Assembly: GCA_964016885.1 (NCBI GenBank)
Contig: OZ024762.1
Coordinates: 4,588,001-4,652,000, forward strand
DNA: 64,000 nt
Direction of reading: 5' to 3'
Source: Eledone cirrhosa
Taxonomy: Eukaryota
In this document: positions 6,016-63,524 of the stretch, one piece after another
Position numbering within the stretch: the first letter of the stretch is position 1
Layout of the letters: every line of letters starts with the position of its first letter
The notes under the pieces: generated by a model
Databases searched by the model: none
What the model saw: only the letters and a program-made list of their open reading frames with translations
What the model was told of the DNA's origin: nothing
Program-made: the position numbers and the translations under genes

Positions 6016-7310
6016 ATAGACTGTAGTCGACTTAATACACGAGGTTGTATACTGTAGTCGACTTAATACACGAGGTCATGTACGGAGGTCGTCTTAATAA
6101 ACGAGGTCATGTCCTGAGGTCGACTTGATACGCGAAGTCATGTACTGAAGTTGACTTAATATACGAGTTCATGTACTGAGGTCAGCATAATACACGAGGT
6201 CATATAATGAGGTCGACTTAATACATGAGGTCATATACTGAAGTCGACCTAATATATATACGAGGTCATGTAGGAGATAGACTTAATACACGAGGTCATA
6301 TACTGAAGTCGACTTAATCTTCGAATTGATATACTAAGTCGACTTATCTACTAGGTCATATAATGAGGTCGACGTAATCCATGAGGTCGTGAGCTGAGGT
6401 CGATTTAATCTACGAGGTCACGTACTAAGGTCGACATTATCTACGAAGTCATGTATCAACGTTGAAGTGATCCACTAGGTCAGAGATGGGGAATCTGCGG
6501 CCTTCTATGCCATTTTGTGCGGCCTTTTTCAGAAATTTCCAACAAATTTTAAATTTTTATTGCAACCGATTTGCAACCTATCAGAATGCTCTGCTACAAT
6601 AAGCAATCACAACAAAATCGTTAAAACCTTTAAAACATTTTTTTTTTTTTATCTCTTTAGATAAATAATTGTTTCTACTTTAGGCACAAGGCCAGCAATT
6701 ACCCAGTACATTACTGGTACTTTATTTTATCGACCTCGTAAGGATGAAAGGCAAAGTTAACCTCGACGGGATTTGAACTCAGACCGTAAAGGGACGTAAC
6801 TATGCTGGAAAGCATGGCGTCCGACCGTCCACCGATACTGCCAATCCACCTTTAGATAAATAATTGTTTCTACGTTAGGCACAAGACCAGCAATTACCCA
6901 GTGCATTACTGGTACTTTATTTTATCGACCCCGTAAGGATGAAAGGCAAAGTTAACCGGGATTTGAACTCTGAATGGCAAGGGCCGTAACTCTATACGTC
7001 AAAGCATGGCGTCCGACCCTCTACCAATAATACATGGTAATTAGATTTTTACAAAATAATGTAGATTTTAAGAATATATAATTATGGCTTCTTGAATGTG
7101 GCCTTATTATACTACGAGTAACATATTGCGACCTTTCAACATGGAAAGGTTCCCCACCTCTGCACTAGATTATATGTAATGTCGACTAATCCACGAGGTC
7201 ATATACTGAGGTCGACTTATCTACTAGTTCATGTGTGAAGGTCAAATTAACATTGGAGGTCATGTGCTGATGTTGACTCAATCCATGAGTTTATGTACTA
7301 AGCTCGGCTT
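6016..7310. repeat. Degenerate 31-bp minisatellite (GAGGTCGACTTAATACACGAGGTCATGTACT), split by the hAT MITE
   Basis: About 15 units at 6016-6480 and about 4 more at 7175-7310. Confidence 0.8.
6481..7162. mobile_element. hAT-superfamily MITE carrying two inserted SINEs
   Basis: TIRs CAGAGATGGGGAATCT / AGGTTCCCCACCTCTG (14/16 match); 8-bp TSD CACTAGGT(6473-80)/CACTAGAT(7163-70). Confidence 0.8.
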
Positions 7311-7317
7311 AAAATAC

Positions 7318-7735
7318 AAAGTCTCAAGGTTGTATCATATATAAACTTTATTCAAATATGAGATTTGTTTCGATATCGAACGGTTCAAGGTATGATCAGG
7401 ATACTGGGACCTGACTCTTCATTGAGAGCTCATCAGATATTGTGTTCTGTGCATATACACCCGTATACCTGATGGTCGATGGAGAATAGGGCTCCAATTA
7501 TCCTGATCACACTTTGAACTGTTCGATGTCGATTTGTCATATTTCAATAAAGCTCATATATGATACAACACTGAGACTTTGTTCTAGCTTACTTTTTATT
7601 TACACTCTGCAGGTTACAGCTGCCCTTAGCCCTTAGCTACATAGAAATATAAACCCTACACGTGACGGACCTTTGGGACTGTATGGAGTACTCTGAGTGG
7701 CGTACCACCTGAAACCAACGTTAAACACCTACCTA
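7318..7735 (+). mobile_element. Long imperfect inverted repeat (~90-bp arms, 7318-7580) with unique tail; probable Penelope-like terminal structure
   Basis: AAAGTCTCAAGGTTGTATCATATA...GATCAGGATA pairs with TATCCTGATC...TATATGATACAACACTGAGACTTT; tail contains GAGTACTCTG like family A. Confidence 0.5.
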
Positions 7736-8475
7736 ATATATATATATACATATATATATTGTTATACTTGGGGAGGGTCATATTTGTGTAATAATATTGC
7801 CAGAATTAATAACAGAACACACTCACTGTTTGGTTGGTTTTCGCTTCTGTGTCTTTTATATCGGTTAATTTAATTTATTCGGTCCTCAATGTTACCATTG
7901 ACTGACCAACGGTCAAAAATACAGATACACTATAGACACAAACACATATATATATAGTCTATCAAAGTTCTTTCGTTGCACATCTGCAACATCGTCAGTG
8001 GTGCTGTTATGTTTCCTCGTGTTGTATTGTATGCCTACGCCATCTTTATTTAGTCTGTTTATTTATTTATTTATTTTTGCCTTCTTCTCTGCGCATGCGT
8101 TTGCGTGTGTATTGTGTTTGGGTGACTGTGTATTGGTTATTGTATTCTATCTTAGTTTACTAGTGTGTGTTTATATGTGTATGTATTTTTTTTTTTTTAT
8201 TTATACTTCTCTTAGGTCAGTATTGTTTGTTTGGGTGTTGTTGTTATTCCATTCATTTTTTCTGTTTAGCTTTGGCCTTCTAAGCTCTATTTCGTTGGCC
8301 TCTCTGATGGGTCATTTCTATGTTTAGATATTATTTTAATTTCTGTTGTCTATGTTACCGTCGTGTTGTTGTCTGGTGTGTTCGTATAGTACTGTTTTTT
8401 CGTCCTTTTAGTTCCCCATATTTGTTTCGACACACGATTTCATATCAAAAACCTCGCAAAACTAATTCATCGCCG

Positions 8476-8528
<53 letters not shown>

Positions 8529-9175
8529 CACGTATACACATTTAGAGAGCGATTTATACATAAATACACACACATATTATATATATATATAGAGATAGAG
8601 AGAGAGAGAGAGGGGGGCGCGTTTGTTCCTAATATTTCATGATTAGTGTCGAGAAAAGCGAAAGCTTTCTACAAACACACACACAGATACACTCAGACAC
8701 ACACACACTCACACACACACAGATACACTCACACACACACACACACACACACACACCCTCACACACAGATATACTCTCACACACACACACACACACAGAT
8801 ACACTCTCTCACACACACACAGATACACTCACAGATACACTCACACACACTCACACACAGATACACTCTCACACACAGATACACACACACAGATACACTC
8901 TCTCACACACACGCACACATACATACATACACAGATACACAGACATATATTTACTTGCATAATTATATATTTATTTATCTGTTTATTGGGCGAAAGTTGC
9001 CAAAATATCGTTCATGTGTCTTATTCTTGAAATTCCACAACATTAGAATATATTAGAGTGGTTGATGGTGGTGGGGGGAGGATAGCAACAGAGGAAGGTG
9101 GAGTGGTGGGGTGGGGTGGTTTGAAGGGTAGTAGTGGAAGAAGAAGAAGAAGAAGAAGAAGAAGAAGAAGAAGAA

Positions 9176-26755: not shown

Positions 26756-27400
26756 TTGACCCGGTGACCTCGACCTAAACAACGACAACCACCAAAGACC
26801 CTTCATTCAATCAGGGTTGTCCTGTTGACCTCGACCTAAACAACGACAACCACCAAAGACCCTTCATTCAATCAGGGTTGTCCTGTTGACCTCGACCTAA
26901 ACAACGACAACCACCAAAGACCCTTCATTCAATCAGGGTTGTCCTGTTGACCTCGACCTAAATAACGACAACCACCAAAGACCCTTCATTCAATCAGGGT
27001 TGTCCTGTTGACCTCGACCTAAACAACGACAACCACCAAAGACCCTTCATTCAATCAGGGTTGTCCTGTTGACCTCGACCTAAATAACGACAACCACCAA
27101 AGACCCTTCATTCAATCAGGGTTGACCCGGTGACCTCGACCTAAACAACGACAACCACCAAAGACCCTTCATTCAATCAGGGTTGTCCTGTTGACCTCGA
27201 CCTAAACAACGACAACCACCAAAGACCCTTCATTCAATCAGGGTTGTCCTGTTGACCTCGACCTAAACAACGACAACCACCAAAGACCCTTCATTCAATC
27301 AGGGTTGTCCTGTTGACCTCGACCTAAACAACGACAACCACCAAAGACCCTTCATTCAATCAGGGTTGTCCTGTTGACCTCGACCTAAACAACGACAACC
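26756..27400. repeat. 61-bp minisatellite, ~10.5 nearly identical copies
   Basis: CGACCTAAA recurs at 26771, 26832, 26893 ... 27381. Confidence 0.95.
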
Positions 27401-27978
27401 ATACTGGGCCTTCAAGGCAAACCAAGTGATAATGGTCAAGGACCTGTTGGGAACGGTTGACCTAGGGTTAAACAACAACAGCCTTTGACTACACTACTCC
27501 GCTAATATACCACTACCACCAAACCACTACACTACACCACCACACCACTACCACCACCCCTACTACTGTTGCTGCTATTACCACCACCACCACCACCACC
27601 ACCACTATTACTGCTACTACCACCACCACCACCACTATTACTGCTACTACTACTGCTGCTACTACTACCCCTACTGCTGCTACTACTACTGCTACTACCA
27701 CTACTCCCACTGCTACTACTACCACCACTACTGCCACTACTCCCACTGCTACTACTACCATTACTGCTGCTACTACTACTGCTACTACCACTACTCCTAC
27801 TGCTACTACTAGCACCACTACTACCACTACTCCCACCACCATCACCACCACCACCACCAACACCATCACCACCACCACCACCATCACCACCACCACAATC
27901 AACTTTATCACCACCACCAGAACCCATTATCATCAACATCATTAATGACAACAACTTCTATAACAACAGCAACAGCAC

Positions 27979-39894: not shown

Positions 39895-39930
39895 TTTTCT
39901 GATGAAGGACTTGTGTCCGAAACGTCGCAA
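39895..39930 (+). ncRNA. Minimal Penelope-type hammerhead motif
   Basis: CTGATGA-A-GGAC-ttgt-GTCC-GAAAC-GTC; helix I poorly paired. Confidence 0.55.
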
Positions 39931-48466: not shown

Positions 48467-48690
48467 TAACGAAGGAAATGTGGTGAGGAACTAGGTGGAC
48501 CATAACGCACCTAAGTACTCAATACTTAGGGTAGTAGAGTGGGTAATAGGAACGAGTAGGACCCCGACAGCTGAGCTCAAGCCGTTTCGACGGCTAATTC
48601 TGGACTAAAAAAAAAATAAATAAATAAATAAATAAAAATTAGCCGTCGAAACGGCTTGAGCTCAGCCGTCGGGGTACTACTCGTTCCTAT
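48467..48690 (-). mobile_element. Family A palindrome-headed element
   Basis: Nearly identical to the 36066 copy with an A-rich loop; flanked by (TA)n. Confidence 0.65.
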
Positions 48691-49356: not shown

Positions 49357-49544
49357 AGATTAAAGTTTAAGCAAAGAATCGCTCCTTTCACCCTATTCCC
49401 GGATCTTCTGAAACTCTTCAGATTTTGGTCTTCATAATTATTATTACTATATATATATATATATAATTTCTGCCGGACCGGCAACCGCTCTTTCAAACCA
49501 GTTCCTGTACACAGCTAAGTATTCTATAAGTCTCTAGCTGTGTC

Positions 49545-49633
49545 ATTCTCGATAAAAGCACTGGATATGTAGTCCTGATGATTTCTAACGAGAATGAAAC
49601 GCGTAGATTACTTCCCTTGCTTTTATCGAGAAT
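49545..49633 (+). ncRNA. Type I hammerhead ribozyme, copy 1 (predicted cleavage after GUA at 49605)
   Basis: Helix I GTAGTC(49569-74)/GATTAC(49606-11); core CTGATGA 49575-81; helix II TTCT-aacg-AGAA; GAAAC 49596-600; palindromic ACGCGT helix III; distal helix I 16 bp ATTCTCGATAAAAGCA(49545-60)/TGCTTTTATCGAGAAT(49618-33) beyond an internal loop. Confidence 0.85.
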
Positions 49634-49854
49634 CTAATTGTAATACGTGACGTATTCTATTCTATAGCGATTAGGTCTTCAAAATGTTTATTATAAACAT
49701 ACAGAATATTTTCGAATATTCTATGTCTATATTCACATATATATCGCTATTTCAGAGCATTTATTCCAATTTCTAATTTCTGCCGGACCGGCAACCGCTC
49801 TTTCAAACCAGTTCCTGTACACAGCTAAGTATTCTATAAGTCTCTAGCTGTGTC

Positions 49855-49943
49855 ATTCTCGATAAAAGCACTGGATATGTAGTCCTGATGATTTCTAACG
49901 AGAATGAAACGCGTAGATTACTTCCCTTGCTTTTATCGAGAAT
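49855..49943 (+). ncRNA. Type I hammerhead ribozyme, copy 2 (predicted cleavage after 49915)
   Basis: Identical to copy 1, offset +310. Confidence 0.85.
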
Positions 49944-50164
49944 CTAATTGTAATACGTGACGTATTCTATTCTATAGCGATTAGGTCTTCAAAATGTTTA
50001 TTATAAACATACAGAATATTTTCGAATATTCTATGTCTATATTCACATATATATCGCTATTTCAGAGCATTTATTCCAATTTCTAATTTCTGCCGGACCG
50101 GCAACCGCTCTTTCAAACCAGTTCCTGTACACAGCTAAGTATTCTATAAGTCTCTAGCTGTGTC

Positions 50165-50253
50165 ATTCTCGATAAAAGCACTGGATATGTAGTCCTGATG
50201 ATTTCTAACGAGAATGAAACGCGTAGATTACTTCCCTTGCTTTTATCGAGAAT
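50165..50253 (+). ncRNA. Type I hammerhead ribozyme, copy 3 (predicted cleavage after 50225)
   Basis: Identical to copy 1, offset +620. Confidence 0.85.
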
Positions 50254-50474
50254 CTAATTGTAATACGTGACGTATTCTATTCTATAGCGATTAGGTCTTC
50301 AAAATGTTTATTATAAACATACAGAATATTTTCGAATATTCTATGTCTATATTCACATATATATCGCTATTTCAGAGCATTTATTCCAATTTCTAATTTC
50401 TGCCGGACCGGCAACCGCTCTTTCAAACCAGTTCCTGTACACAGCTAAGTATTCTATAAGTCTCTAGCTGTGTC

Positions 50475-50563
50475 ATTCTCGATAAAAGCACTGGATATGT
50501 AGTCCTGATGATTTCTAACGAGAATGAAACGCGTAGATTACTTCCCTTGCTTTTATCGAGAAT
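50475..50563 (+). ncRNA. Type I hammerhead ribozyme, copy 4 (predicted cleavage after 50535)
   Basis: Identical to copy 1, offset +930. Confidence 0.85.
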
Positions 50564-50698
50564 CTAATTGTAATACGTGACGTATTCTATTCTATAGCGA
50601 TTAGGTCTTCAAAATGTTTATTATAAACATACAGAATATTTTCGAATATTCTATGTCTATATTCACATATATATCGCTATTTCAGAGCATTTATTCCA

Positions 50699-50754
<56 letters not shown>

Positions 50755-50760
<6 letters not shown>

Positions 50761-51038
50761 AACCGGATGACGTGTCCAGCCCATCTGAACTTGCTGCGCA
50801 TATATTCCGTGATGACGTCCCTCACGCCGGACTTCTGTCTGATGACTTCGCTCCTGATGTGCTCTCTCAACGAGATTCCTAGCATTGATCTCTCCATGGC
50901 TCTTTGAGCCGTTACCAGGCTCTGCTCTTCTCTCTTCGTTGTAGCCCAAGTTTCACTGCCATATAACATTGCAGGTAAAACTGTGCTATTGAAGAGGTTG
51001 GCGCGGGTGGTCTTGTCCAACCTCCCCTTGAGCACATC

Positions 51039-51040
<2 letters not shown>
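50755..51040 (-). mobile_element. RTE-clade LINE ORF2 fragment (post-RT region)
   Basis: Open frame DVLKGRLDKTTRANLFNSTVLPAMLYGSETW...QRAMERSMLGISLREHIRSEVIRQKSGVRDVI...KFRWAGHV, with the LYGSETW and WAGHV motifs of RTE ORF2. Confidence 0.9.
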
Positions 51041-51096
<56 letters not shown>

Positions 51097-51114: not shown

Positions 51115-51250
51115 CTCCCGAGTTCAATCGGGTGTAACCACAGTAAGTAAGGCACTCAATATATATAGCAAAGTATAAATATTTAATATAGAAATAGTTT
51201 CCACAGGACTAGAACTGTTTCATTCGAAGGAAATCATCAGGGCTTTCCTA
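51115..51250 (-). mobile_element. Diverged, non-palindromic copy of the same hammerhead-like family
   Basis: Minus strand CTGATGA-TTTCCTTCGAAT-GAAAC-AGTTCTAGTCCTGT followed by the TTACTTACTGTGGTTAC tail. Confidence 0.55.
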
Positions 51251-54081: not shown

Positions 54082-54637
54082 TGTGTGTGGTATGTTTATA
54101 TTGTTAATTGTGATGAGCTGGTTTTATATTCGATGCTGCTGAGAAGAGAGATAAAGAATTTGGTAAATACTACTTAAGTTTGGTAAATAGCTACTCCAGC
54201 TACTGTTGTTGTTGTTGTTGTTGTTTAACCCAGAGGCAGCAGTGCCCGATTTAGGACAAATGAGATCCCTTACTTGGACCATGAAAGAGTTAAACATGTT
54301 TGGTAGGAGGAAGATGGGCCCTCCCTGGTCAACGGGGCCTTAGCACAATGGTAAATCTGGCACTGTGTGTCAGCTGATGAAGGATATGTCTGGCATTGCA
54401 AGTTGTATGTAAAATATAAAACTTATACCAGCTGGCCGTTGTCAGAGCAGCATCAACATCCGCCCGGGATATATTACACTTTGAACAAAAGATATACACA
54501 ATATCTGTCTGAGGAGGTCGTATCGACTACATAATAGATTCCACTATATATACCAGTAACAAAGTAACCAATAAAATGATGTAAGATTCAAACACACTGA
54601 CTTCTTCTTCATTACTATACATACACATATATATATT

Positions 54638-54830
54638 AGTTTTAATATAGATGAGATTCTACAGGACTAGAACTGTTTCATTCTTTAGAAATCATCAGGA
54701 TTCCTGATGATTTCTAAAGAATGAAACAGTTCTAGTCCTGTAGAATCTCATCTATATTAAAACTTTTATACTCTGCAATGTATTGAGTACCTTACTTACT
54801 GTGGTTACCTCCGATTCAACCCGGAATAAC
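54638..54830 (+). mobile_element. Palindrome-headed Penelope-like element with back-to-back hammerhead-like cores
   Basis: 127-nt inverted repeat 54638-54764 centred at 54701, just 5' of CTGATGA(54704-10)-TTTCTAAAGAAT-GAAAC; unique tail containing GTATTGAGTAC and ending CCCGGAATAAC. Confidence 0.7.
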
Positions 54831-62038: not shown

Positions 62039-62237
62039 AGTTTTAATATAGATGAGATTCTACAGGACTAGAACTGTTTCATTCATTAGAAATCATCAGG
62101 AATCCTGATGATTTCTAATGAATGAAACAGTTCTAGTCCTGTAGAATCTCATCTATATTAAAACTGTTATACTCTGCTATGTATTGAGTAACCTACCTTA
62201 CTTACTGTGGTTACCTCCGATTCAACCCGGAATAACG
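62039..62237 (+). mobile_element. Second copy of the palindrome-headed hammerhead-like element
   Basis: Inverted repeat 62039-62165 centred at 62102; CTGATGA at 62105-11; same tail as the 54638 copy; embedded in (TA)n. Confidence 0.7.
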
Positions 62238-63416: not shown

Positions 63417-63524
63417 CCTCTGTATGACCAAAGGTGTCGTGAGATCCTTTCCGCCTTGCAGACGAATTCCCCATGGGGTCGTGAAAGAATCCCTGTACAG
63501 ATTTATCTGTAACTGGGTCATCAT
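63417..63524 (-). CDS. First coding exon of a PDZ-domain protein of the PDZ-LIM (Zasp/ALP/Enigma, PDLIM) family; N-terminal part of the PDZ domain
   Basis: Translates MMTQLQINLYRDSFTTPWGIRLQGGKDLTTPLVIQR, with the PWG(F/I)RLQGGKD motif typical of Zasp/PDLIM PDZ domains. In-frame TGA six codons upstream of the ATG. Ends at a canonical phase-0 donor AGG|GTGAGT (intron begins at 63416). Confidence 0.9.

Follow-up and report, generated by a model that had tools for sequence, protein, structure and literature searches.

The window analyzed here comprises 64,000 nucleotides of the Eledone cirrhosa genome (contig OZ024762.1, positions 4,588,001 to 4,652,000) and carries on its reverse strand, at 63417–63524, the first PDZ exon of a host gene of the PDZ-LIM/Zasp type (best match in the PDB PDLIM7, E = 2e-4). 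A Zasp-motif exon lies on the same strand 52 kb to the left of the window (C23:4,536,094), and we infer that the two exons are parts of one gene; a second PDZ exon was not found by motif in the window or in the 10 kb on either side of it. If one gene indeed holds both exons, the tandem array described below, which is located downstream of the PDZ exon and on the opposite strand, is intronic and antisense, and we consider a position in a host-gene intron likely.

The array occupies 49464–50703 on the forward strand, where a run of period-310 identity extends over exactly 1240 bp, or 4.0 units, all four of them identical. Unit coordinates are counted from window position 49464 as position 1. The 310-bp unit has a GC content of 0.345 and contains no coding frame, its longest stop-free frame being 59 codons. 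Both the four identical units set in (TA)n and the antisense orientation relative to the PDZ gene had been described in an earlier note on this sequence, and both are borne out, the former by the period-310 run and the latter by the common strand of the PDZ and Zasp-motif exons. The left (TA)n target spans 49449–49465, such that the 5′ junction has TA in common with unit positions 1–2, and the right one spans 50704–50756; a target-site duplication is unreadable inside this repeat. The copy number of 4.0 is that of the assembly, with no read spanning the locus among the sequencing runs aligned, and the exact whole-unit length may be due to chance, aided by the TA microhomology; other one-armed copies of the family have 5′ starts at scattered unit positions. 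The array opens at unit position 1 and closes at unit position 310, at the long 3′ end of the family. The terminal stretch of its last unit, at 50665–50703, holds the short end (unit 272–281) and the long end (unit 305–314) used across the family; it corresponds to a PLE-type tail (PLE, Penelope-like element) and includes a 17-nt motif common to sister families. A hairpin at unit positions 237–262 (49700–49725 in the first unit), which directly precedes the short 3′ end, is a candidate enzyme-recognition signal.

The surroundings of the array are rich in other repeats. The segment at 50757–51050 (−), which abuts the right (TA)n and which we take to be the end of an RTE-type LINE reverse transcriptase, has no Pfam match; the possibility that the array split this fragment was rejected, as the left flank holds no RTE continuation. 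An abundant long inverted-repeat element around a TA-rich spacer lies in (TA)n at 48555–48681, and shows the highest depth of its 6-kb stretch in host DNA reads. Further tandem repeats are found at 26765–27401 (61-bp period, 10.4 copies, 98% matches) and at 6020–6455 (31-bp period, 14 copies).

Inspection and folding show an intact type I hammerhead core in every unit of the array. In the first unit the motif spans 49545–49633, recurring at +310, +620 and +930, with its catalytic core at 49575–49605 made up of CUGAUGA, helix II (49582–49595), GAAA and the palindromic ACGCGU (49599–49604), and with the predicted cut after 49605. Helix I is extended, in that its proximal 6 bp (49569–49574 with 49606–49611; unit 106–111 with 143–148) are followed by a 3-bp stem between two internal loops and then by a distal 16-bp helix (49545–49560 with 49618–49633; unit 82–97 with 155–170). 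Helix II is closed by a U·U mismatch at 10.1–11.1. The 6-nt palindrome ACGCGT makes up helix III; in a lone motif it yields a single pair closing a palindromic tetraloop, since a second pair would leave a loop of just 2 nt, which is not sterically credible. When a two-unit transcript is folded, the minimum-energy structure is a double hammerhead, at −110.7 kcal mol–1 compared to −94.9 kcal mol–1 when two single hammerheads are forced, with pair probabilities of 0.83–0.92 for the inter-unit helix III and of 0.34–0.49 for helix II, which is weak. In the folded monomer circle, the single-hammerhead form lies 6.7 kcal mol–1 above the minimum, and the circular fold is 4.2 SD below that of 60 dinucleotide shuffles. 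The prediction is therefore that neighboring units act in pairs, as a double hammerhead, and not singly, in which case cutting would need two units and may be weak.

These results sharpen the ribozyme proposal of the earlier note. Its cut positions (49605, 49915, 50225 and 50535) all fall at the ends of GTA triplets, with CTGATGA at 49575, 49885, 50195 and 50505, and the distal helix I that it placed past an internal loop is fully paired (16 of 16). Its complete type I hammerhead in each unit stands as regards the core and helices, which are present in all four, but its single action does not, as folding predicts the double form. The proposed search with Rfam type I models gave no hammerhead match either at E ≤ 1 over 12 kb or at E ≤ 10 over 631 bp, so that the ribozyme assignment rests on inspection, folding and sequence variation.

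Very young insertions of this kind number well over a thousand in the genome, the array being one of them. Pattern searches, by which the family copies were found, returned 4,033 genome matches to an exact 43-nt motif, 17,238 to a degenerate 31-nt core and 15,088 unit-to-unit junctions, with zero matches to the reversed control in each case. From the forward-strand end patterns (766 long and 898 short, the short-end count including some internal variants and reverse-strand counts being inflated by overlaps), we estimate roughly 1,500–1,800 insertions; the family totals about 5.3 Mb (0.18%) of the 2,996-Mb assembly of this animal, which is rich in microsatellites. Dispersed arrays had been anticipated from the window, as had a recent insertion and a retrozyme identity; the genome-wide tests support all three.

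To describe this layout we sampled 90 regions, all in the first 150 Mb of contig C1, of which 10 were chosen by the exact core and 80 by end patterns, the latter biasing the sample toward clean TA junctions. They contain 93 records and 92 insertions (L090 and L091 are one insertion, and L064 holds two near-duplicates). Counting arms from 40 nt at 96% identity, 78 of the 92 insertions consist of two divergent, back-to-back arms, the others being 12 one-armed, one four-piece and one gap-cut insertion. Among the regions picked without end patterns 9 of 10 are two-armed, and these 10 regions likewise have (TA)n at the 3′ ends. Two-armed insertions combine one short 3′ end (about 272–281) with one long 3′ end (305–314), which is 26–33 nt longer; both ends are present in 77 of 78 two-armed records, with the long end of the last one found in the adjoining region L090, and in a hold-out of the last 20 regions (18 of 21 two-armed) the combination recurs in 18 of 18. 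The inner junctions can fall at any unit position, 32 of 77 overlapping by at least 2 bases (18% expected at random), 9 being blunt and 24 containing inserted bases; in one insertion (L055), 272 nt of foreign sequence separate the two arms (1599–1870). There is no LTR architecture in the 92 sampled insertions, the units running straight into the microsatellite. The single-armed window copy, which has the long end only, is a minority form of a family whose usual form is two inverted arms. A second arm of up to 8 nt would look like (TA)n here, and stubs of a second arm are present in the one-armed L052 (7 nt) and L213 (18 nt).

Partial tandems, an inverted 5′-truncated copy, a 30–40-bp tail at one end and a bias toward (TA)n are hallmarks of PLEs, and the origin of their tandem and inverted structures has been called undefined (Craig et al., bioRxiv 2021.04.23.441226). 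Since the retrozyme insertions share these hallmarks, a PLE-type enzyme likely copies the retrozyme. The family has an inverted truncated second copy (not visible in the window copy), a one-end tail and a (TA)n target; the 310-bp unit itself has no open reading frame with reverse transcriptase and GIY-YIG domains, and is therefore not an autonomous PLE.

An autonomous PLE is nevertheless at hand in the same genome. A young family, reached via a GIY-YIG fragment of a neighboring locus (150 scored matches at 97–100% identity), has a tandem unit of 3,127 bp and a 900-codon open frame with an RVT_1 match (E = 5.5e-16) along with GIY-YIG at its C-terminus; an intact copy lies in L184 (G000:C4:233387300-233397200, frame 6016–8715), with further copies in L185–L202. 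Its copies are 98% identical, and the family is presumably active. Where both ends of a two-armed copy could be seen, they lie at about 904 and at 944–946 in (TA)n, in 20 of 20 cases; most of these copies had been picked for opposite-strand pairs, so that they give no two-arm frequency. This shared footprint supports the link to PLEs that had been suggested from the window. The tail of the young PLE takes in the first codons of its open reading frame, and its terminal repeat contains a hammerhead-like motif of the minimal kind in which core position 4 is C. A second, older family (L161 3221–6991 (−)), presumably Neptune-like in its features, has a 1,257-codon open frame with a Zn-finger-like linker and no Pfam match, is very abundant (about 88% identity among the scored copies), and has two ends about 60 nt apart; a few letters after its short end resemble those after the retrozyme short end, a likeness that may be due to chance. 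The terminal repeats of these two families show nothing beyond chance when compared to the unit (best 14 nt, E = 0.27), matches of about 70% being TA-rich noise. Thus, from the two PLE families compared, the enzyme class is indicated and the partner family is not.

Taken together, the array is probably a non-LTR retrozyme insertion, copied into (TA)n in trans by PLE machinery, mostly from monomer circles. Mobilization of retrozymes from circular RNA by PLEs has been proposed (Cervera and de la Peña 2020, PMC7229834), and metazoan type I motifs usually act as dimers, such that multimers are cut and monomer circles spared (PMC4209133). Tandem transcripts of the present family would fold as double hammerheads between neighboring units and be cut to 310-nt monomers, which a host ligase would close to circles, by analogy with other retrozymes, and a lone circle, having no partner motif, would stay intact. 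A PLE enzyme with reverse transcriptase and GIY-YIG nuclease would then cut the (TA)n target, and a single RNA would be primed by both DNA ends, at two AU-rich positions that lie 26–33 nt apart, the ends being observed and the priming conjectural. Each primed end would be extended through several units and the products joined to give back-to-back arms; in about 1 insertion in 7, including the window copy, the second arm would be missing or too short to see. Counting against this reading, 8 of 9 Xenopus retrozyme dimers gave no in vitro cleavage, according to the text of a recent preprint (bioRxiv 2026.07.22.740005).

The haplotypes of the insertions bear on the form of the template. Haplotypes are common to the units of one insertion and vary from insertion to insertion, with 26 of them in the first 72 records (the window array has the reference class, found in 22 of the 72). 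The two arms agree in haplotype in 46 of the 48 insertions that have 2 or more units per arm (permutation mean 9.8, maximum 19 in 10,000). In the first 70 regions the arms cross the cut site 676 times with no junction scars, showing only haplotype variants and one change that occurs twice in L054, and 5′ ends lie within 5 nt of the cut site in 2 of 154 cases (5.5 expected). A cut linear monomer was therefore rejected as template, which must have been continuous at this site, either as a circle or as an uncut multimer. Copying of the second arm from the DNA of the first is disfavored, as either arm can be the longer one. There are 27 distinct variants fixed over whole insertions, many of them in short arrays, and since such fixation needs a one-unit bottleneck we count it in favor of circles. 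A minority of insertions differ: in L082 and L098 a variant occurs in the 3′-most unit of both arms only, and in L224 two units of one haplotype are followed by another at equal ranks in both arms, patterns that a monomer circle cannot give and that call for a multimer template. Arm-to-arm conversion also occurs, as shown by a shared variant at unequal ranks in L084 and L054 and by the partial conversion of L067, and long arrays are partly expanded in place (L051, L054, L055 and L090/91), so that arm length is no proof of rolling.

Alternatively, the same element and PLE enzyme could always use an uncut or partly cut linear tandem, with circles as by-products and with gene conversion or unequal exchange homogenizing the units later. 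The three rank-matched mosaics fit this directly, as do the variants partly spread in long arrays and in L067, and the autonomous PLE too makes tandem 3.1-kb units in both of its arms; a possibly weak ribozyme would point the same way. We nevertheless consider an exclusively linear template unlikely, as the 27 variants fixed in all units of both arms stand against mosaics in only 3 of 77 two-armed insertions, and as selection on RNA pairing, together with the stable double-hammerhead fold, implies that processing matters for spread. The evidence for such selection is that pairing is retained by all 7 of the fixed variants that fall in helices, compared to 2 of 15 private variants (p = 2e-4, G·U counted as a pair). 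On balance we lean toward monomer circles as the main template, with uncut multimers serving in a minority of insertions.

The remaining fixed variants fall at the free core position 7, in loop II, or change the U·U to A-U; core conservation alone is not significant, with 0 of 27 fixed and 4 of 78 private changes in 13 core bases (p = 0.57). Changes from A to G make up 8 of 27 fixed and 7 of 86 private changes (p = 0.008), and 10 of 27 when polarized on two relatives of 94–95% identity. This excess fits A-to-I editing of the template, and also selection for G·U, and is only a lead.

Older sister retrozyme families with units of 311–320 bp and 68–95% identity (L033 4382–4715; L101–L130; L170 and L171) have the same inverted layout, with a longer palindromic helix III and C3-G8 or U3-A8 cores. 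Their 3′ motif gives 5,096 matches as an 18-mer, and a hairpin of 7–11 bp precedes the short end in 23 of 30 sister loci, with loop and stem letters that differ. Among 21 sister cores (a few of them repeats from overlapping loci), 6 have C3-G8, 15 have U3-A8 and none is mixed; one truncated U3/G8 copy (L106) lies outside this set. Covariation to U3-A8 has been described for PLE hammerheads (PMC4209133).

Such observations weigh against a DNA-only origin, in which a satellite would be amplified, with the hammerhead as passenger, either through DNA circles that had been excised or by a rolling-circle enzyme akin to that of Helitrons. DNA circles would also yield uniform tandem units, and local expansion at the DNA level is seen in the long arrays. 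However, the two strand-specific 3′ ends 26–33 nt apart, the divergent arms and the TA targeting match the PLE of this genome, the fixed variants preserve RNA pairing including G·U, and both the core covariation among the sister families and the A-to-G excess go against it, such that we regard this origin as very improbable.

Another hammerhead family is present in the window at 54630–54770 and 62040–62170, with a related copy at 51170–51250 (−). Its core and helix II are near-identical to those of the 310-bp family, with 16 nt shared, and two copies are perfect palindromes, both arms of which start from one base immediately preceding the core, in contrast to the scattered inner junctions of the 310-bp family. 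Such a layout, seen in two copies, suggests that the template was linear and its 5′ end fixed. Further minimal-hammerhead-like motifs, of another dispersed repeat family, occur at 39899 (+), 52361 (−) and 52607 (−).

In another proposal, an autonomous PLE that has escaped view would have left its terminal repeat (pLTR) stranded as the present unit, and the arrays would be truncated products of the transposition of that element and not of a separate non-autonomous cycle. The footprint would then be the same as that of PLEs, homology between pLTRs and retrozymes has been reported in Xenopus (bioRxiv 10.64898/2026.07.22.740005), and a first look gives 35,408 and 26,732 PLE candidates in the genome against the two families compared. 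Set against this, the 92 insertions hold only units, short fillers and the one 272-nt foreign piece in L055, arms of up to dozens of units cross the unit boundary into the next unit and never into an open reading frame, and the 310-bp family has haplotype lineages of its own, which makes a stranded terminal repeat a very unlikely source.

That the arrays are assembly artifacts of chimeric or fold-back long reads, as the perfect identity of the units, the want of a read spanning 49464–50703 and the two near-duplicates in L064 might suggest, is scarcely credible given the locus-specific haplotypes, the unequal short and long ends, the asymmetric inner junctions, the closed unitigs of 340 nt in runs X1–X3 that match the unit exactly, and the short-read contigs of run X5, whose depth of ~10^5 over the unit against ~7 on unique flanks shows that the family is no product of assembly. 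The unit was found in 20 sequencing runs from 17 studies and 18 organism codes, which suggested horizontal transfer; no RNA run is among them, which says nothing about expression. Seven different runs were examined, with X2 and X3 compared over 1.6 kb only. Run X5 is host DNA, with identical unique flanks at a depth of ~7, in runs X1 and X4 the unit is accompanied by traces of other host repeats, and the raw Hi-C reads of the organism of X1 (X23 and X24) yielded nothing on the unit. For those of the runs examined that could be controlled, trace DNA explains the unit under foreign organism codes; in the 13 other listed runs transfer may or may not have played a part.

Returning to the retrozyme copied by PLE machinery, we tentatively put forward a fuller model, which we judge to have somewhat less than an even chance of holding in all its parts. 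A Penelope-type enzyme would carry out two-ended rolling-circle target-primed reverse transcription on one 310-nt circle, a double-hammerhead switch would cut multimers and spare the circle, and A-to-I edits on the long helix of the circle would be written back as A-to-G changes of whole arrays. If this is true, two-ended priming ~30 nt apart on one circle would explain the retrozyme tandems, the inverted PLE arm and the one-sided tail. This one genome combines a very young 310-nt substrate with a young, intact PLE that leaves the same footprint, and thereby provides a minimal template and a candidate enzyme. Moreover, a two-armed intronic insertion always has one sense arm, and could cut host pre-mRNAs if the ribozyme is active; the window copy is one-armed and antisense to its host gene. 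In L1 twin priming, a single RNA is primed by both ends of the target DNA, and an inverted 5′ segment is joined by microhomology; in the present family, by contrast, the putative priming sites are fixed ~30 nt apart, the two arms are copies of the same units, and a poly(A) tail is absent.

The low-GC tandems within the range of ~150–450 bp, the type I core in each unit, the dispersed copies and the lack of LTRs place the family among the non-LTR retrozymes of animals as a new member, with cleavage and circles predicted. A plant-type LTR retrozyme, with a type III hammerhead in two LTRs and a 4-bp target duplication, is ruled out by the type I topology and the tandem units. The metazoan non-LTR retrozymes described in PMC7229834 likewise have non-coding tandem units of ~300 bp with GC below 45%, a type I hammerhead in each, and no LTR, PBS or PPT. 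Axolotl HHR_Amex1 has the same one-pair helix III with palindromic tetraloop and HHR_Amex2 the same U·U at the base of helix II, and weak monomer but better dimer cleavage is reported for the axolotl retrozymes, in which both helix traits occur. RNA circles and cleavage were shown for those elements, whereas the ribozyme is here read from sequence and folding, and the fixed paired ends, divergent arms and TA target are features of the present family. The words "inverted", "microsatellite", "octopus" and "cephalopod" are absent from the main text of PMC7229834, whose supplementary data may show insertion ends. In the text of Li, Clavereau and Pollet (2026, bioRxiv 10.64898/2026.07.22.740005), whose case for regarding the retrozymes of animals as non-autonomous PLE sequences is built on co-occurrence and on similarity to pLTRs in Xenopus, there is no mollusc and no analysis of insertion ends; "tail", "target site" and "twin" are absent and "inverted" occurs in a reference only, although the supplements may show ends. 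The PLE link is drawn there by similarity and here by footprint, the terminal repeats of the two PLE families compared having no sequence similarity to the unit. Within the main texts of this literature, then, neither the footprint in retrozymes nor a cephalopod retrozyme is described, supplements possibly showing insertion ends, and what appears new is insertion-structure evidence for PLE mobilization of retrozymes, for which earlier support consisted of a proposal, co-occurrence and similarity.

In insertion structure the family resembles the EN+ PLEs (Penelope/Poseidon, Neptune and Naiad; bioRxiv 2021.04.23.441226), which as described there share the partial tandems, inverted copy, one-end tail and (TA)n bias; the present family differs from them in having no open reading frame, a unit of 310 bp instead of 3–4 kb, and arms of many units. 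As in the present and sister families, PLE hammerheads are of type I with a palindromic helix III, dimer action and covariant U3-A8 (PMC4209133), and it is the long canonical helix I that sets the family apart from the minimal PLE hammerhead.
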